Source: a virus
Lineage: Duplodnaviria > Heunggongvirae > Uroviricota > Caudoviricetes
Virus record (IMG/VR): IMGVR_UViG_2512047041_000002
Coordinates: 1-16,160 of that record
Length of the DNA: 16,160 bases
Direction: 5' to 3' (one strand)
The notes beneath the pieces are model-generated. The model was not told the DNA's origin, ran no database searches, and saw only the letters and a program-made list of their open reading frames with translations. The number at the start of each line of letters is the position of its first letter. The stretch's first letter is position 1. Shown piece by piece: positions 8,262-16,160 of this stretch. Both the position numbers and the translations under genes were made by a program.

Positions 8262-9152
8262 TCAGGCTGCCAGATCATCGTTTCCGATGGAAGCATAATA
8301 AGCTTTTTCTGCTTCTGCCGGAGGAGTATGGCCCAGCCTTTCCAGCAATCGTCGATTGTTATACCAGTCCACCCACGTGAGTGTGGCCAGTTCCACTTCT
8401 GCACGGTTTTTCCAGCTCTTACGGTGTATTACCTCCGCTTTGTAAAGACCATTGATGCTCTCCGCCATCGCGTTGTCATACGAGTCGCCTGTACTTCCTG
8501 TTGATGCCAGTAATCCGGCTTCCTTAAGCCGCTGTGTGTAGGCCAGCGATACATACTGAGAACCTTTATCACTGTGATGGACCGTGCCGGACGGTCGACG
8601 GGCCCATAACGCCTGCTCCAGTGCATCCAGCACGAATGTCGTTTCCATGGACGATGAGACCCGCCACCCCACGATGTATCCGGCAAACACATCAATGATG
8701 AACGCCACATAGACGAAGCCCCGCCATGTGCTGACGTAAGTAAAATCAGCCACCCACAGCTGGTCAGGTCGTTCTGCCACGAACTGACGGTTTACGCGGT
8801 CGCCTGCGGCAACGGCTTTCCGGCTGATGGTCGTACGGACCTTTTTACCCCGGAGAACACCGGCAAGTCCCATAACCGCCATGAGACGTGCCACAGTGCA
8901 TCTGGCCACTCTGATACCTTCCCGTAACAACTGACGCCAGACTTTACGCACACCGTATACCTTGTGATTTTCATCGTATACGCGCTGTATCTCTTTCTTC
9001 AGCCAGTCATCGCGCTGCGCACGGGCACTGCGTTTATCCGGATGATGTCGCTGTTGCTGACAGTGGTAATACGTTGACGGGGCAATATGCAGTTCGCTGC
9101 ATAGCGGTCCGACCCCGTACTGCTCACGCAGCTTATCCAGCAGTGGCATCAT
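8262..9152 (-). CDS. IS629-like transposase OrfB (296 aa, DDE catalytic domain)
   Basis: IS3-family OrfB-like sequence (…[31 protein letters not shown]…[11 protein letters not shown]…) in the -1 frame relative to orfA. Confidence 0.85.
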
Positions 9153-9475
9153 TTTTTCCAGAGGCGGTCGAACTCCGCCTTCGCAAAATAAGCGGAAGCC
9201 TGGCGAAGGATATCGTTACTGCGGCGCAGTTCACGATTTTCACGTTCCAGCTCTTTCAGACGCTGACGTTCAGCGGTGGTGAGCCCTCCATCACCGCCCC
9301 CGGTATCCCGCTCATGCTGGCGAACCCAGACACGCAGAGTCTCCGGCGTACAGCCAATCTTTGGAGCAATGGAACAAATTGTCGCCCATTGTGAGTCATA
9401 TTCGCCCTGACTTTCCAGAACCATACGGACTGCCCGTTGACGGACTTCGGGGGAAAAACGAGTATTTTTAGTCAT
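9149..9475 (-). CDS. IS629-like transposase OrfA (108 aa, HTH)
   Basis: [30 protein letters not shown]... with C-terminal leucine-zipper-like region; ends in an A6 run (GGAAAAAATGA) at the orfA/orfB overlap. Confidence 0.85.
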
Positions 9476-9622
9476 CCTGTTTACCTCTTTCTCAGGAAGT
9501 TTAGTCTCCAGGATTCCCGGGGCGGTTCATCTCCAGAACTTGGCAGGATTACAAGTTCATACGGAGAACTTGCACGAGCAGCAACAAAGCCACTTCGATA
9601 TGTTGAACAGACAGGGCGATCT

Positions 9623-10030
9623 ATGCCAGCCATTAGCACTCTTGAGAATGGCCTTCATCCAGTTTTAGAGAGCGCATTGTCTGGCGCTTTTAGAACTACT
9701 GGCACTATCGCAGGGTTCTCTGGAGGAGGCGTTATTGGAGCAATAGCGGGTGGCGCTGCAGGTGGGGCAATTGATGCAATGGCAAAAGGAGCGATAGCGA
9801 AATTATCCGCAACTAGAAGCGGTCGTTACGCTATTGAAAAGGCTGTTCAAGAGGCAACAAAGGCAGTTAAGGTTGGGGCAAGTGATGGCGCATTAGCGGC
9901 GGCGGAACGCAGATTTATGGCAAATAAGGCCGCCGTAAAAGCAATACGCGAGGCACTAGGAAACGAAGAGTTCCAGCGTTTAGCAAGAGCTGGAATTGTG
10001 GCATCGCTAAGCGGAATGGCACAGGAGTAA
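9623..10030 (+). CDS. Glycine-zipper protein (135 aa), possible membrane-active/bacteriocin-like; 5' end may be truncated by the IS
   Basis: TIAGFSGGGVIGAIAGGAAGGAIDAMAKGAI GxxxG-repeat segment followed by Ala/Lys-rich amphipathic helices; weak RBS at the first ATG and the frame stays open back to the IS boundary. Confidence 0.4.
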   Translation: MPAISTLENGLHPVLESALSGAFRTTGTIAGFSGGGVIGAIAGGAAGGAIDAMAKGAIAKLSATRSGRYAIEKAVQEATKAVKVGASDGALAAAERRFMANKAAVKAIREALGNEEFQRLARAGIVASLSGMAQE

Positions 10031-10360
10031 TTAGTCATCCATGGATGGATTGAGCTTATCTCGTGTTGATGTGGCAATTTTCCCAACATTTTTCAACCAA
10101 GATTTTAAGAAGGATATGTCGTCCTTAATATCATGAATATCCTCATTCTTTATACGATCAACCTTATCCTCTAAGCTCTCTATAGAACGCTCAATGCTAG
10201 ACAGAGAGATTTTTAAGTCCCCTTGCTCACGTTCCAGTGAGGATTTGAGAGCACAATATTCGTTTTCTAGAATTCCTATTTTTTTTGTTAGAGAGTGCAT
10301 TCGATACTCATACACCAAACCAGAAACGACTAATGCAGCCAACAGAAACCATTCAAGCAC
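10031..10360 (-). CDS. Membrane-anchored coiled-coil protein (about 110 aa, GTG start)
   Basis: GTG at 10358..10360 preceded by AAGGAGG; N-terminal hydrophobic helix LEWFLLAALVVSGLVYEY followed by heptad-like SLEREQGDLKISLSSIERSIESLEDKVDRIK; stop abuts the convergent glycine-zipper stop (TAATTA). Confidence 0.5.
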   Translation of the reverse strand: MLEWFLLAALVVSGLVYEYRMHSLTKKIGILENEYCALKSSLEREQGDLKISLSSIERSIESLEDKVDRIKNEDIHDIKDDISFLKSWLKNVGKIATSTRDKLNPSMDD

Positions 10361-10390
10361 ACCAACCTCCTTAGTTTTGAGCAGGATACC

Positions 10391-10756
10391 ATGAAAAAAG
10401 TTAACATTGGAAACGTACCAAAGATGCTCGTTCCGCTCTTTGAGAGCGGTACAATTGTGTGTTGTAGAGACTTTCCAGAATGGCAACGCCTGCATCAAAA
10501 ACTTGGCGTTGACGTGCAGGACTCGGATGCCAACGGAGCGTCTCATACAATGAGCAGCGAGAATGGTGTTTTGCATGTGATAGGTGTGTTCAATGGCAAA
10601 CTATCTACTATTGCCCATGAGTGCGCTCACATGGCATTCGATATCTGCTCAAGGGTCGGTGTTGATGTTGAACCAGGAAGAGCCAATGAGACTTACTGCT
10701 ACTTAATGAGCAGGCTTGTTGAGTTCTGCGAGCGACATATCAAAAAGCCGGAGTGA
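10391..10756 (+). CDS. Small HExxH-motif protein (121 aa), possible ImmA/IrrE-like metallopeptidase-fold protein
   Basis: ATG at 10391 with AGGA 4 nt upstream; motif TIAHECAHMAFD (HExxH) in the C-terminal half; two Cys pairs. Assignment by motif only. Confidence 0.45.
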   Translation: MKKVNIGNVPKMLVPLFESGTIVCCRDFPEWQRLHQKLGVDVQDSDANGASHTMSSENGVLHVIGVFNGKLSTIAHECAHMAFDICSRVGVDVEPGRANETYCYLMSRLVEFCERHIKKPE

Positions 10757-10764
10757 CCCGGCTT
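10745..10764. terminator. Stem-loop between convergent genes (possible bidirectional terminator)
   Basis: AAGCCGG-agtgac-CCGGCTT overlapping the HExxH gene stop; flanked by A-run on one side and T-rich sequence on the other. Confidence 0.3.
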
Positions 10765-10769
10765 GATTA

Positions 10770-10949
10770 TTACTTTTTGCTGTCTGGAGTTCGCTTATCC
10801 AATACCCAGCCATGACCTGGCTTTGTTGTTGGTGGAAGCCTTTCGTTGTCCTTGACGGTGGCAAAATTGTCTTTCTTACCGCCGCGTGGGCCAACTTCTT
10901 GGTATATTCCGCCGTTTTTTCCTGTGTTTTCACCTGGTTTTTTCGCCAT
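10770..10949 (-). CDS. Small Gly/Lys-rich hydrophilic protein (59 aa)
   Basis: ATG at 10947..10949 with GAGGT Shine-Dalgarno; MAKKPGENTGKNGGIYQEVGPRGGKKDNFATVKDNERLPPTTKPGHGWVLDKRTPDSKK; TTGACT -35-like hexamer upstream. Confidence 0.5.
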   Translation of the reverse strand: MAKKPGENTGKNGGIYQEVGPRGGKKDNFATVKDNERLPPTTKPGHGWVLDKRTPDSKK

Positions 10950-11039
10950 GATATACCTCAACATGCACCCGTTATTGGGCGATTAAATATTGATCTCATT
11001 TTATGAGTAGTCAATATGGTCCAAAAAAGGTAAAAATTA

Positions 11040-11064
11040 ACCCACCGTCAGGTGGGTTTTTTAT
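11040..11064. terminator. Intrinsic terminator hairpin, likely bidirectional; ends the Mnt-like/ClpP-like operon
   Basis: ACCCACC-gtca-GGTGGGT followed by TTTTTTAT on the plus strand and by TTAATTTTTACC on the minus strand; 24 nt beyond the ClpP-like stop. Confidence 0.6.
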
Positions 11065-11087: not shown

Positions 11088-11624
11088 TCAAACAACCCAC
11101 CAGTTTGCCTGATTGGATGCCAGCCTTGCAGTTTTTATGGAATTAATTATGCCATGCTCAAGAGCCTTGTTAGCATCCAAAATGGTCGAGTCTGCTATCA
11201 GGGATGCCCACCTAATATGGGTTCCGATGTCGATATTGAACGTCTCAACGAAGCGATCAAGATCGTTATCGAGGCATTTCCCGTACTCTCTCAATCTGGC
11301 ATGGTCGGCGGCTGGGGAGGCAAAGCACCATAATAGAGGATGTAACAGGAATCTTGATAATGGGTTTGCGAAACGTTCTGAGCCAGCCAGGAAAACGATA
11401 TTAGCTATGGATTCAACATTGCTTATGTTGTGAGTTCTAACGGTAACAGGGAGTGACTTAAGAAAGTTATACGCAGTAAAGCCAGCGGCAGTTTCCCCTC
11501 CCTGACTTGATATATGGATATTTAATTCAGTTGCGCCTTGAGATAATGCGGTGAGACAGTGGTTCTGAAGTTGCCCAACAGTGGCAGTGTTAACGGGGCA
11601 TAAGAAATGAATTGTGTGCAGCAT
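11088..11624 (-). CDS. ClpP-fold (S14-family-like) serine peptidase homologue (178 aa), non-structural context
   Basis: By-eye alignment to E. coli ClpP blocks: ISSQGGETAAGFTAYNFL vs INSPGGVITAGMSIYDTM; ESIANIVFLAGSERFANPLSRFLLHP vs [29 protein letters not shown] (Ser and His aligned); C-terminal ALEHGIINSI vs AVEYGLVDSIL. Start ATG overlaps the Mnt-like stop (TAATG). Confidence 0.6.
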   Translation of the reverse strand: MLHTIHFLCPVNTATVGQLQNHCLTALSQGATELNIHISSQGGETAAGFTAYNFLKSLPVTVRTHNISNVESIANIVFLAGSERFANPLSRFLLHPLLWCFASPAADHARLREYGKCLDNDLDRFVETFNIDIGTHIRWASLIADSTILDANKALEHGIINSIKTARLASNQANWWVV

Positions 11625-11872
11625 TATTTTTCATCCTTAGCATACATGGTCTTTAGCGTCTCAAGTAGCGCCTCTTTGAATTTATCAGCTTCTTGGTTAG
11701 CGAATCCTTCAAGTGAGCGAGAGCCATCAAGATTATCAACATGTTTTTGAAGGATAAGCACGATCTCTGAGTTCATTGATCTGCCGTTTTTATCCGCTTC
11801 TTGCTGAATGCGTTTCTTTAAATAGTCTGGAATCCTAATCCCCAATGGACTGATATCTCTTGCACCTTTCAT
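11624..11872 (-). CDS. Mnt-like ribbon-helix-helix repressor (82 aa)
   Basis: ATG at 11870..11872 with GAGGAG Shine-Dalgarno; MKGARDISPLGIRIPDYLKKRIQQEADKNGRSMNSEIV... shows the RHH pattern of P22 Mnt (NGRSMNSE) plus a C-terminal extension; divergent from the Arc-like gene. Confidence 0.75.
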   Translation of the reverse strand: MKGARDISPLGIRIPDYLKKRIQQEADKNGRSMNSEIVLILQKHVDNLDGSRSLEGFANQEADKFKEALLETLKTMYAKDEK

Positions 11873-11894
11873 TTCTCCTCCTGCACGCTGTGCG

Positions 11895-11967
11895 TAGCTA
11901 CACAGTGTAGGCAAAAAATTTTTGACTTTAAATAAACACGGTGTAGTATTTAGTTATCACGGTGTAG
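11895..11967. promoter_or_regulatory. immI divergent promoter/operator region
   Basis: Perfect palindrome CTACAC-A-GTGTAG (11898..11910); two direct copies of CACGGTGTAG (11937..11946, 11958..11967) 21 bp apart; TTGACT (11922..11927) with TAGTAT 16 bp downstream as a candidate rightward promoter overlapping the repeats. Confidence 0.55.
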
Positions 11968-11981
11968 CAAGTGAGGTGGAA

Positions 11982-12122
11982 ATGAAAGTTAGAGACATCG
12001 CTCCATTAGGGATTCGTATCCCGCCAGAGATTAAAGAAAAATTGAAGGAAAAGGCTAAGGAGGAGGGCAGGTCTTTAAATTCAGAAATAGTGAAGCGTCT
12101 TATTCGCAGCCTAAAAAGTTGA
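11982..12122 (+). CDS. Arc-like ribbon-helix-helix repressor (46 aa)
   Basis: ATG at 11982 with GAGGTGG Shine-Dalgarno; [46 protein letters not shown]; the RHH strand [11 protein letters not shown] is nearly identical to the Mnt-like protein; the 66-aa track ORF is an upstream extension. Confidence 0.7.
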
Positions 12123-12170
12123 AGCCCCAACTGCTGGAACAGTCGGGGCTTCGGTATCAACAAATCAGAT
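12113..12170 (-). ncRNA. Candidate sar-like antisense RNA opposing the antirepressor RBS (hypothetical)
   Basis: Minus-strand TTGACT (reverse complement of 12200..12205) and AATAAT (12175..12180) with a 19-bp spacer; downstream a 12-bp imperfect hairpin (12121..12152) followed on the minus strand by AACTTTTTAG. Confidence 0.25.
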
Positions 12171-12183
12171 AGGAATTATTGAT

Positions 12184-13113
12184 ATGACAAGTTTAGCAAA
12201 GTCAACATTAAATTGCACTAACAGCATCACCATTTCAGACGTCAAGATTCATATGGATTCAGAGGGGCGTTACTCGCTTAATGACCTGCACAAGGCATCA
12301 GGTAAAGAGCGTCGTCATGAGCCTGCGGCGTGGCTGCGACTCGAACAAACCAATGAGTTAGTTCAAGAAATTCTAAATACACAGATGTGTGTATTTAAAA
12401 ATGGCGATAACTTTAATTCTTCAGAATCGCAGATTAAGAAGCCAATGGACTCTAAGAAGGGTCGCTACGGAGGCACCTACGTGTGCAAGGAGCTTGTTTA
12501 CTCCTACGCCATGTGGATTAGCGCAGCCTTTGCGCTGAAGGTTATCCGTGCATATGACGCAATGGTTACTGCCACACAAGAGAGGAAAGCTATTGGCGGT
12601 AAAACTTCAGTAGCTGAACGCACACCGCTACGAGATGCAGTAAACATGCTGGTAGGAAAGAAAGGACTTCGCTATGACGATGCATACAATATGGTTCATC
12701 AGCGTTTTGGTATTGACAGCATTGATGAACTTTCAATTGAACAAATCCCGCTGGCCGTAGAGTACATCCACAGGGTAGTGCTTGAAGGTGAGTTCATCGG
12801 CAAACAAGAGAAGAAAACCAACGAGCTTTCTGCAAAAGAAGCAAACAGCCTTGTATGGTTATGGGATTATGCCAACCGCTCACAGGCATTATTCCGCGAA
12901 CTGTATCCGGCATTAAAACAAATTCAATCGAACTATTCCGGCAGATGTCATGACTGCGGTTATGAGTTCTCCCGTATTATCGATATGGCGAGAGATGTTT
13001 TAATCAACCATACACGAGATGTTGATATTAATGAGCCAGACGGACCAACGAATCTTTCCGCATGGATGAGACTTAAGAATAAAGAATTACCTCCTTCAGT
13101 ACATAACTACTGA
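12184..13113 (+). CDS. Antirepressor with N-terminal KilA-N domain (309 aa), Ant-like
   Basis: Position directly after the Arc-like gene as in P22 immI; N-terminal region ([25 protein letters not shown]...[23 protein letters not shown]) resembles KilA-N; AGGA RBS. Confidence 0.65.
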
Positions 13114-13213: not shown

Positions 13214-15130
13214 ATGAGAGACATTACAGCCAATGTGATCGTATCGATGCCTTCGCAACTCTTCACTATGGCGCGTTCTTTTAAAGCCGTAGCTAATGGC
13301 AAAATTTATATCGGTAAAATTGACACTGATCCTGTAAATCCAGAAAACCAGATTCAGGTCTATGTGGAGAATGAAGACGGTTCTCACGTTCCTGTTTCGC
13401 AACCAATAATCATTAACGCTGCTGGATATCCTGTATATAACGGACAGATTGCCAAATTCGTTACCGTGCAAGGCCATTCTATGGCTGTTTATGATGCGTA
13501 TGGTGCGCAGCAGTTCTATTTTCCTAATGTGCTGAAGTATGACCCTGATCAACTACGGCAGCAATTAGAAGACCCAGATGGAGCGAATAAATACCCAAAA
13601 CTTCAGATAGCAAGATGGAGAGACAGTTATGATGTAAGAGGTTGGGGGGCTATTGGTGATGGTGTTCATGATGATACATCAGCTCTATCAGAATTACTTT
13701 CTGTTGCAACAGGTGGTGAAAAGATAGATGGGCGAGGGCTTACTTTTAAAGTATCAACTCTTCCAGATGTCAGTCGATTTAAAAATGCTCGTTTTTTATT
13801 TGAGAGAATACCGGGTCAGCCTCTTTTTTATGCTTCTGAAGATTTTATCCAGGGAGAGTTATTTAAAATTACAGATACACCGTGGTACAACGCCTGGACG
13901 CAGGATAAAATGTTTGTATATGACAATGTCATCTATGCGCCTTTTATGGCTGGAGACCGCCATGGTGTAAATAACCTCCATGTTGCATGGGTTCGCTCAG
14001 GAGATGACGGGAAGACCTGGACAACGCCGGAATGGCTTACAGATTTACATGAAAACTATCCCACAGTTAACTATCACTGCATGAGTATGGGGGTTGTCAG
14101 AAATCGCCTTTTTGCTGTAATTGAGACGCGGACCGTGAGAGGAAATAAACTGCAGGTTGCAGAGTTGTGGGATCGCCCAATGAGTCGCAGCCTTCGCGTT
14201 TATGGTGGTATAACGAAAGCAGCAAATCAGCAAGTCGCTTATATTCGCATTACTGATCACGGATTATTTGCTGGTGATTTTGTCAACTTCTCAAACTCTG
14301 GTGTTACAGATGTTACCGGGAATATGACGGTGACTACTGTTATTGATAAAAATACCTTTACAGTTACGACGCAAAATACCCAGGATGTGGATCAGAATAA
14401 CGAGGGTAGATACTGGAGTTTTGGCACATCATTTCACTCGTCACCATGGAGAAAAACCAGTCTTGGAACTATTCCTTCTTTTGTTGACGGAAGCACTCCT
14501 GTTACTGAGATTCACAGTTTTGCGACGATTAGCGATAACAGTTTTGCTGTTGGCTACCATAATGGTGATATTGGTCCACGCGAGCTTGGGATACTCTATT
14601 TCTCTGATGCTTTCGGTTCTCCTGGTAGCTTTGTTCGCAGACGCATACCTGCAGAATATGAGGCGAATGCATCTGAGCCATGTGTAAAATATTATGATGG
14701 CATTCTGTATCTGACGACCAGGGGGACATTAAGTACTCAACCCGGTAGTTCATTGCACAGAAGCTCTGATTTAGGTACATCATGGAATTCTCTTCGCTTC
14801 CCAAATAATGTTCATCACTCAAACCTTCCTTTTGCCAAAGTTGGCGATGAGCTGGTTATTTTTGGCAGTGAGCGCGCATTTGGTGAGTGGGAAGGAGGAG
14901 AACCTGATAACCGTTATGCAGGAAATTATCCAAGAACATTTATGACCAGAGTTAACGTCAATGAGTGGAGTCTGGATAATGTAGAGTGGGTTAATGTTAC
15001 TGATCAGATTTATCAGGGCGGAATAGTTAACTCTGCGGTTGGTGTTGGTTCAGTTTGTATCAAAGACAACTGGCTGTACTACATTTTCGGTGGGGAAGAC
15101 TTTTCTAAACCCATGGAGCATAGGGGATAA
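13214..15130 (+). CDS. Tailspike: P22-like head-binding N-terminal domain plus glycosidase-type receptor-binding domain with Asp-box (BNR) motifs; likely the 5' part of a frameshifted longer gene
   Basis: First ~115 aa ([11 protein letters not shown]...[38 protein letters not shown]...[15 protein letters not shown]...NVLKYDPDQ) closely resemble the P22 gp9 N-terminus as I recall it; [14 protein letters not shown] motif; two Asp-boxes SGDDGKTW and SSDLGTSW. Confidence 0.8.
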
Positions 15131-16160
15131 CAACAGAAAATATCCTTATGTTCACGATGGTCACCCGGCTGATTTGTATTGTTTCAGGGTGAAAATTAAA
15201 CAGGAAGAATTTGTTTCAAGGGATTTTGTCTACGGAGCCACTCCTAACAGAACGCTTCCTACTTTTATGTCGACGTCAGGCGTGAGGACGGTTCCTGTAC
15301 CCGTTGATTTCACAGATGATGTTGCCGTCCAGTCACTGACTGTCCATGCAGGTACATCAGGACAAGTTCGCGCGGAAGTCAAACTTGAGGGTAATTACGC
15401 CATTATTGCGAAGAAAGTACCGTCTGATGATGTTACCGCTCAGAGATTAATCGTTAGCGGCGGTGAAACAACGTCTTCAGCAGATGGTGCAATGATAACG
15501 TTGCATGGTTCCAGAAGCAGTACTCCACGTCGCGCGGTATATAACGCACTCGAACATCTTTTTGAGAACGGAGATGTTAAACCTTATCTTGATAATGTAA
15601 ATGCTCTTGGTGGTCCGGGAAACAGGTTCTCGATAGTTTATCTTGGCTCCAATCCTGTGGTTACCAGTGACGGAACATTAAAGACAGAGCCGGTCTCTCC
15701 TGACGAAGCATTGCTGGATGCCTGGGGTGACGTCAGGTATATCGCTTATAAATGGCTGAACGCTGTCGCTATAAAGGGGGAAGAAGGGGCGAGGATACAT
15801 CATGGTGTAATCGCGCAGCAACTTCGTGATGTTCTTATTTCTCACGGACTCATGGAAGAAGAAAGCACAACATGCCGCTATGCCTTTCTTTGCTATGACG
15901 ATTATCCCGCAGTATATGATGACGTCATTACTGGCCAAAGGGAAATGCCGCTGACTGATAATGACGGGAGCATCATTGTTGATGAGGATGATAATCCAGT
16001 GATGGTAATAGAAGACATCATTGAGCGCGTTGAAATAACGCCAGCAGGATCTAGATGGGGGGTCAGACCTGATCTCTTATTCTATATCGAGGCAGCATGG
16101 CAGCGCAGAGAAATGGATAAGATAAAAGCTAGGTTAGACTTAATAGAAGGGAAGCACTAA
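15039..16160 (+). CDS. Tailspike C-terminal region with S74-type intramolecular chaperone domain signature; probably continues 13214..15130 in another frame
   Basis: Frame open from 15027, overlapping the end of the upstream ORF; contains TSDGTLK (Ser-x4-Lys spacing as I recall for the autocleavage site of such domains) and [11 protein letters not shown] motif; track start is a TTG with no RBS, so an independent start is doubtful. Confidence 0.55.

Follow-up and report, generated by a model that had tools for sequence, protein, structure and literature searches.

A short, N-terminally truncated ClpP paralogue as probable mobile cargo on the mnt transcript of a P22-like Escherichia coli prophage

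The stretch of viral DNA analysed here (the window) comprises 16,160 nucleotides of IMG/VR virus record IMGVR_UViG_2512047041_000002. On its minus strand, a gene for an 82-amino-acid (aa) Mnt-type repressor of the ribbon-helix-helix (RHH) class is followed directly by an open reading frame (ORF) for a 178-aa protein related to ClpP. We consider it probable that this ORF, a prophage-borne short ClpP paralogue, is mobile cargo (a moron) that is made in the lysogen off the mnt transcript, and not a partner that evolved for Mnt. An earlier note, drawn up from the letters of this DNA alone, had suggested instead that repressor and protease form an operon which could act as a superinfection-exclusion, anti-phage or regulatory-proteolysis module.

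The junction between the two genes is of the TAATG type, as the earlier note had read it: one base is shared by the stop codon of mnt and the start codon of the ClpP-like gene, and a Shine-Dalgarno-like sequence is embedded in the last mnt codons (Table 1). This zero-gap junction was found in all E. coli and Pectobacterium loci in which the gene is linked to mnt, and a gap of 27-30 nt was found in Providencia. Beyond its stop codon, the ClpP-like gene runs into a bidirectional terminator-like hairpin, AACCCACCGTCAGGTGGGTT. An identical hairpin stands directly 3' of mnt in the P22-like phage ST160, which is without the ClpP-like gene, and the DNA that flanks the insertion is ~90% identical to ST160. 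As the hairpin follows mnt in ST160 and the ClpP-like gene here, the protease gene appears to have been inserted between mnt and the terminator of mnt; the simplest reading of these sequences is that a mobile gene was thereby placed onto the lysogenic transcript.

The predicted 178-aa protein (RefSeq WP_000903306.1, "ATP-dependent Clp protease proteolytic subunit") matched the Pfam ClpP profile PF00574 with 44.4 bits, against a cut-off of 20.2 (E=2.2e-11). The match spans profile positions 37-180 of 182; positions 1-36 are absent, and the ORF starts at the first core beta-strand. The protein thus lacks the N-terminal axial loops and helix A, the parts that serve pore gating and contact with ClpX/ClpA. 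An AlphaFold2 model (predicted local distance difference test score, pLDDT, 92.6) aligned in Foldseek to E. coli ClpP structures with template modelling (TM) scores of 0.82-0.84, and to chain 9uxt_A with a TM score of 0.94 and a root-mean-square deviation of 1.5 Å. When aligned with Mycobacterium tuberculosis ClpP1 and the protein in 9uxt_A, Ser72 (in VESIANI) and His95 (in FLLHPL) fall on the catalytic Ser and His, and neither residue varies among 30 aligned family members, for which the mean column identity is 49%. The ClpP similarity and the candidate Ser and His pointed out in the earlier note are in this way borne out by a profile match above threshold, a modelled fold and two invariant residues; of the triad that it had wished to see established, fold, Ser and His stood and the catalytic Asp did not, as it is not conserved. 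Between homologues at 78-80% amino-acid identity dN/dS is 0.07-0.08, which marks the ORF as a coding gene under purifying selection and not one that arose by chance.

All NCBIfam ClpP equivalog or subfamily cut-offs were missed by the 178-aa protein (TIGR00493, 19.2 vs 308.6; PRK00277, 31.3 vs 249; PRK12553, 40.1 vs 228). The best PHROG matches are families named "head maturation protease" (phrog_94, E=7e-21), the GenBank record of phage phiv205-1 annotates the gene in the same way, and NCBIfam models of ClpP-related head proteases give the top E-values, all of which would favour a relocated or degenerate ClpP-type prohead protease. However, the phrog_94 match covers only the shared ClpP core (positions 110-254 of 622), the NCBIfam head-protease models stayed far below their curated cut-offs (NF045542, 49.3 bits against 120), and the closest relatives are ClpP paralogues from bacterial chromosomes. 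By far the best sequence match in the Protein Data Bank (PDB) was again 9uxt_A (phmmer E=1.6e-35; BLASTP 40% identity, E=5e-45). A full-library profile search gave ~270 clusters (at 50% identity) with E<=1e-30, and among the best 150 of these the protein length is mostly 180-200 aa. The members of the prophage clade share a conserved C-terminal NWWV(x) (residues 174-178), predicted to form a terminal beta-strand, which is missing from the two Pseudomonas chromosomal sequences that were examined.

Entry 9UXT is ClpP1 of Pseudomonas plecoglossicida (PpClpP1; PLoS Pathog 2026, PMC12900304), and the window protein belongs, by sequence and modelled fold, to the short ClpP paralogue family which that protein typifies. 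PpClpP1 is described as an N-terminally truncated ClpP without gating loops and with a Ser-His-Pro site, which forms a tetradecamer with an open pore of 42.7 Å (PMC12900304). Its peptidase activity is 13-fold below that of the canonical paralogue, it does not bind ClpX, and alone it cleaves neither casein nor GFP-ssrA in vitro; together with canonical ClpP it forms a heterotetradecamer which is more active and still functional with ClpX (PMC12900304). The protein was studied there as a drug target and phages are never mentioned (PMC12900304). In our literature search this was the only relevant paper, and no paper found connects the family with prophages. The statement of the earlier note that no described system could be matched has accordingly been overtaken, since a 40%-identical relative is characterised both biochemically and structurally.

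The genomic contexts of the homologues were surveyed at 80 IMG/VR viral-contig loci, 11 genome loci and ~25 further contexts, in which an RHH gene directly upstream and flanking markers were scored. The genome-contig scan used strict peptide patterns and yielded 11 loci only, and it is the viral-contig scan that provides a usable census. A Mnt-type gene lies directly upstream on the same strand at ~36 of the 80 viral loci. All of these are E. coli alleles of at least ~94% amino-acid identity (most 97-100%) or come from Pectobacterium (80%), and Providencia loci from other assemblies (66%) have the gene order of the Mnt-linked E. coli loci. The Mnt-linked gene occurs in two settings. One is a P22-like immI region, in which tailspike, ant and arc are followed by a divergent mnt-clpP pair that is convergent with gp16-gp20. 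In the other, the whole immI cassette (mnt, ClpP-like gene, arc and ant) sits in the tail operon of lambda-like siphophages, between L and K. Such tail-operon cassettes were observed in phage PhiR12_1 (L002, 6048-8060) and at the viral loci L040, L042-L044, L050 and L055-L059.

The other ~44 viral loci, all at <=75% identity, have no RHH gene, and the homologue stands by itself in antisense orientation to its neighbours. Its commonest site, flanked by Rz/Rz1 and the gene for the small terminase, corresponds to that of lambda bor; other sites are beside N (Proteus prophages), between the genes for the tape measure and DNA_circ_N (Pantoea) and near tail fibres (Chromobacterium). In Klebsiella, one lone copy is preceded by a promoter-like site and followed by a hairpin terminator. 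The gene behaves as a moron: it is present or absent at the identical ST160 terminator, it is carried by unrelated backbones (P22-like, lambda-like and myovirus-type prophages), and every lone copy is antisense. Nearly all enterobacterial members of the family are prophage cargo and occupy classic lysogenic-conversion slots. In a neighbour-joining tree the Mnt-linked group is nested among the lone prophage genes, and chromosomal copies from Pseudomonas and Massilia are basal. The Pseudomonas gene of the PpClpP1 type (L032-L036) is chromosomal and repeatedly flanked by genes for a KGG-repeat stress protein and a DUF6555 protein; with this location in chromosomal stress loci, the idea that PpClpP1 is itself prophage-borne was rejected. 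On one viral contig (L101) a KGG-like ORF adjoins the ClpP-like gene. Within E. coli the gene is present in 128 of 5,426 complete genomes (~2.4%), always on the chromosome and including extraintestinal pathogenic and avian pathogenic (APEC) lineages; it is encoded in 6 of 50,697 GenBank phage records, all of E. coli phages.

The repressor that precedes the protease gene is itself variable. At least six different Mnt DNA-binding alleles stand before one protease allele group in E. coli, and the part of Mnt that is constant among them is limited to the last ~12-27 residues, which bear the Shine-Dalgarno sequence and the start codon of the protease gene; the C-terminal residues ...ETLKTMY(A/G)KD(E/D/N)K are retained across otherwise differing alleles. 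The N-terminal sequence of one of the E. coli alleles appears to match that of P22 Mnt. Because more than half of the prophage homologues are without an RHH gene and at least six Mnt alleles precede the same protease, the Mnt-protease pair is not a conserved functional unit. The two-gene system of the earlier note is not upheld on these grounds, its Mnt being an ordinary one, and nor is the conserved pairing with RHH genes which it had looked for, only ~36 of the 80 viral loci being Mnt-linked. At two IMG/VR loci (L047 and L049) and in strain MS 196-1 (H36), two or three tandem Mnt-type RHH genes were observed upstream of the ClpP-like gene, which suggests that extra repressor alleles were inserted into the same transcript.

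P22-type prophages make Mnt in lysogeny and thereby keep ant silent. By the P22 layout, the ClpP-like gene would owe its transcription to Pmnt, its translation keeping pace with that of Mnt, and, since it lies on the mnt transcript and is coupled to Mnt, the protein is expected to be made in lysogens. Lone copies elsewhere would reach expression in the lysogen as antisense genes, for example in the lambda bor position. Judging from the biochemistry of PpClpP1, the protein would form heptameric rings with weak peptidase activity of their own and would not recruit an unfoldase. The phage ring could then stack with a host ClpP ring, and such a hybrid would alter ClpXP and ClpAP proteolysis in the lysogen; we offer such action through hybrid rings tentatively, as a possibility that the analogy with PpClpP1 makes attractive without quite tipping the balance in its favour. 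Candidate benefits would be a more stable lysogeny (for example by removal of antirepressor or other phage proteins) or the hindering of superinfecting phages.

Several points weigh against this explanation. The third residue of the triad is Ser149 in the window protein, with Asp148 adjoining it, and is Pro in PpClpP1 and Asp in canonical ClpP; across the 30-sequence family the column holds S, A, T or G, the adjoining Asp148 is not conserved, and HMMER places the catalytic Asp of solved ClpP structures in an insertion relative to the 178-aa query. The segment around Asp148/Ser149, ADSTIL, has no Arg, while that of PpClpP1 is AYPRIL. Canonical ClpPs presumably bear at the position of the triad Asp an Asp-Arg pair that senses ring stacking, and with no Arg in ADSTIL the co-assembly seen with PpClpP1 may not carry over. 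PpClpP1 is, moreover, a chromosomal protein encoded beside KGG/DUF6555 stress genes and not by a phage, so that its physiology may differ. The copy in the window lies in a decayed prophage (with a deletion associated with an IS3-family insertion sequence, and a frameshifted tailspike), which makes its current usefulness in the host strain uncertain. No Pmnt promoter was found by a simple promoter scan; such scans were not enriched over shuffled sequences, and our promoter claims rest on homology with the P22 layout. The expression and activity of the phage ring, and its compatibility with E. coli ClpP, are predictions from sequence and from the analogy with PpClpP1.

One alternative explanation makes the protein a dedicated anti-phage or superinfection-exclusion factor encoded by a single gene. 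A gate-less protease made by the lysogen, working alone or via host unfoldases, would then degrade the ejection, antirepressor or replication proteins of incoming phages and so protect both lysogen and prophage. The slots that the gene occupies are those of lysogen-expressed cargo (the orf59a/sieA slot downstream of mnt in P22, lambda bor, the site beside N), the gene is antisense to late genes, and the local hotspot holds defence-like cargo such as a YafO toxin. Variation within the gene may point the same way: among 17 near-identical E. coli alleles, with 9 synonymous and 7 non-synonymous variable sites, codon 100 (11325-11327) specifies Cys, Gly or Phe, and this codon aligns with Thr101 of PpClpP1, a residue that lines the bortezomib/substrate pocket. 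Against this, the defence-database search suggested by the earlier note gave nothing: at E<=0.1 neither the ClpP-like nor the Mnt-like protein had a match among the families of PADLOC-DB v2.0.0, and PADLOC on Arc and the neighbouring ORFs gave weak, unrelated matches only (to Ant and a coiled-coil ORF). The literature search found no tie of the family to phage defence, PpClpP1 alone is inert towards casein and GFP-ssrA, and at the base of the family stand ordinary genes of bacterial chromosomes, located in stress loci. We judge a dedicated factor for defence or superinfection exclusion to be unlikely, though not remote. A related proposal, which we hold to be doubtful, is that temperate phages of Enterobacterales spread the gate-less ClpP as a lysogen-expressed, single-gene factor of "proteolytic immunity". 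By stacking on host ClpP or through an unknown adaptor, it would redirect Clp against the antirepressors, ejection proteins and replication proteins of superinfecting or heteroimmune phages.

The protease might also be a true partner in immI, which degrades Ant, Arc or Mnt as a post-translational back-up to the repression of ant; the translational coupling would then reflect a shared task. It is consistent with this that E. coli and Pectobacterium both keep the overlap and the embedded Shine-Dalgarno sequence, that Providencia keeps the gene order, that the mnt-clpP-arc-ant cassette moves en bloc into lambda-like tail operons, and that the protease gene and the 3' end of mnt are inherited together. 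Yet no RHH gene adjoins the homologue at ~44 of the 80 viral loci or in any of the more distant cases, most of which are also without a nearby Ant, many immI regions work without the gene (that of ST160 and those in about half of the E. coli matches included), and the protease is paired with at least six Mnt specificities. We regard this explanation as improbable.

A small RHH gene followed by an overlapping second gene is the typical layout of a type II toxin-antitoxin pair, and the window has just this arrangement, with the second gene overlapping the stop codon of the first. The protease as the toxic partner of an RHH antitoxin is nevertheless very improbable: homology to Mnt extends over the whole of the RHH protein, which comes complete with operator, arc, ant and sar, the protease is a conserved, housekeeping-like gene in Pseudomonas, and the absence of an RHH neighbour from ~44 of the 80 viral loci and from all chromosomal homologues argues against an obligate pair. 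The least probable of the explanations is the prohead protease introduced above, which the earlier note had rightly thought unlikely and which is effectively ruled out by the curated cut-offs and by position, for at ~110 loci no homologue lies in a portal-scaffold-capsid block and each is antisense to structural or lysis genes or inside immI, the PhiR12 lambda-like phages carrying theirs in the tail operon within the immI cassette. P22-like phages are not known to need a prohead protease.

Many regulators, of phages and of their hosts, are controlled through ClpXP and ClpAP, among them lambda O, the Mu repressor and RpoS. If the cargo explanation is right, a phage ClpP subunit made in lysogeny would let a prophage tune the Clp machinery from inside, and "proteolytic immunity", if true, would add to the functions by which prophages resist other phages or induction a new class that present-day defence catalogues do not list. 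The short-ClpP family is known; that it travels as prophage cargo and has been spliced onto the mnt transcript seems not to have been described in the searchable literature. A known biochemical oddity, PpClpP1, in this way gains a concrete and testable link to phage biology, and two misleading annotations of the gene, "ATP-dependent Clp protease proteolytic subunit" and "head maturation protease", are corrected.

The surroundings of the gene are those of a P22-type immI region (Table 1), with mnt divergent from arc-ant, a sar gene between arc and ant, and the whole located between ejection-protein and tailspike genes. The 82-aa protein matched Pfam Arc (PF03869, E=6e-8) and, over its full length, PHROG 2685 (E=8e-31), and is 33% identical to Mnt of ST160, again over full length (E=1e-13). 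It is a true Mnt relative, an ordinary immI repressor with the full set of normal partners. A minus-strand hairpin with a 14-bp stem at 12152-12121 provides a terminator for sar. The palindromic repeats in the divergent control region resemble the core of P22 Omnt (CACGGTG), and it is from this resemblance that we assume an operator role for them.

The chromosome of E. coli O7:K1 strain CE10 is 100% identical to the window, and the prophage site lies between ybhC and the bio operon. The CE10 prophage is a P22-like, defective remnant. An IS3-family element (8262-9475) stands between cIII/kil and a gp20 DNA-transfer gene (9437-10030) that is without its N-terminus, and the replication, immC, lysis and head genes are all missing, in an IS3-associated deletion that reaches from cIII to the C-terminal part of gp20. 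That no head genes are found near the ClpP-like ORF is partly a consequence of this deletion and to that extent an artefact. The tailspike is represented by two overlapping ORFs (13214-15130 and 15039-16160), which RefSeq records as frameshifted. In the APEC strain E12053, IS3 copies interrupt the same region, including the start of the ClpP-like gene. In the intact relatives, phiv205-1 and the prophage of strain MS7163, the same genes are found on the opposite strand from gp7/gp20/gp16, which encode the ejection proteins, and just beyond them. The locus is an accessory hotspot, as the earlier note had supposed; it lies between these ejection genes and immI, and other strains bear a YafO-family toxin and other cargo there. 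Three small cargo ORFs fill positions 10031-10964 of the window, between gp20 and the terminator; in MS7163 the equivalent slot holds a YafO-family toxin gene and a 188-aa ORF (L014, 3977-5001). No sieA is present in the window.

Table 1. Features of the immI region and the adjoining cargo genes, by position in the window
Feature	Position	Strand	Evidence or remarks
109-aa cargo ORF, hydrophobic N-terminus, then coiled-coil-like	10031-10360	-	phrog_5962
121-aa cargo ORF	10391-10756	+	phrog_1365
59-aa cargo ORF, possibly the orf59a equivalent	10770-10949	-	phrog_3202
Terminator-like hairpin AACCCACCGTCAGGTGGGTT with T-runs, bidirectional	11039-11058	both	scan; 30 nt beyond the stop of the ClpP-like gene
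Putative ClpP-family serine peptidase gene, short and without N-terminal loop, 178 aa (537 bp)	11088-11624	-	ATG 11624-11622, stop 11090-11088
Overlap of mnt stop and ClpP-like start, TAATG, one base shared	11622-11626	-	direct sequence reading; reverse strand ...AAGGATGAAAAATAATG
Shine-Dalgarno-like AAGGA, 9 nt upstream of the ClpP-like ATG	11635-11639	-	within the last mnt codons (K-D-E-K)
mnt, Mnt-type RHH repressor gene, 82 aa; N-terminal RHH domain and C-terminal helical tail	11624-11872	-	ATG at 11872, stop 11626-11624
Divergent mnt/arc control region	11873-11981	.	inverted repeats and promoter scan
Perfect 13-bp palindrome CTACACAGTGTAG, operator-like	11898-11910		inverted-repeat search
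Pant-like promoter, TTGACT-16-TAGTAT	11922-11949		promoter scan; overlapped by operator-like repeats
Two operator-like repeats of the ACACGGTGTAG type, 21-22 bp apart	11936-11946, 11958-11968		inverted-repeat search
arc, 46-aa Arc repressor gene	11982-12122	+	Pfam Arc E=4e-12
sar antisense RNA	12117-12182	-	Rfam RF00262, 67.6 bits (gathering 43), E=5e-13, full model
ant, antirepressor gene, KilA-N and P22_AR_C domains	12184-13113	+	Pfam PF10548 E=3e-29, PF04383 E=1e-22; RefSeq "phage antirepressor Ant"

Set beside known systems, the region follows P22 closely, with mnt, arc, ant and sar in the P22 order between ejection-protein genes and tailspike, and the DNA just beyond the terminator is ~91-93% identical to that of P22-like phages. 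Unlike in P22-type phages, in which mnt runs straight into its terminator, a 537-bp gene for a predicted protease intervenes and would be coupled to mnt. P22 itself has a sieA-orf59a-mnt cluster (P22 SieA paper), and that paper makes no mention of Clp or of a protease.

The lone homologues between Rz/Rz1 and the terminase genes recall lambda bor in being antisense to both. In lambda, bor lies just downstream of Rz and is expressed in lysogens, and its product is a lipoprotein. The ClpP-like product is unrelated to it, and the window gene, unlike bor, appears to be without a promoter of its own and would use Pmnt.

With canonical E. coli ClpP the window protein shares the fold (TM 0.82) and the aligned Ser and His, yet the identity is ~20%, and the first ~36 profile positions and the conserved catalytic Asp are not there. 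The likeness to PpClpP1 is far closer: the 40% identity extends over the full length, the two proteins measure 178 and 183 aa, both have lost the N-terminal axial loop and helix, and both share the Ser and His positions and have no Asp at the canonical third position of the triad. They differ in the segment at that position (ADSTIL in the window protein, AYPRIL in PpClpP1) and in their genomic setting, PpClpP1 being a Pseudomonas-wide chromosomal gene beside KGG/DUF6555 stress genes and the window gene being prophage cargo.

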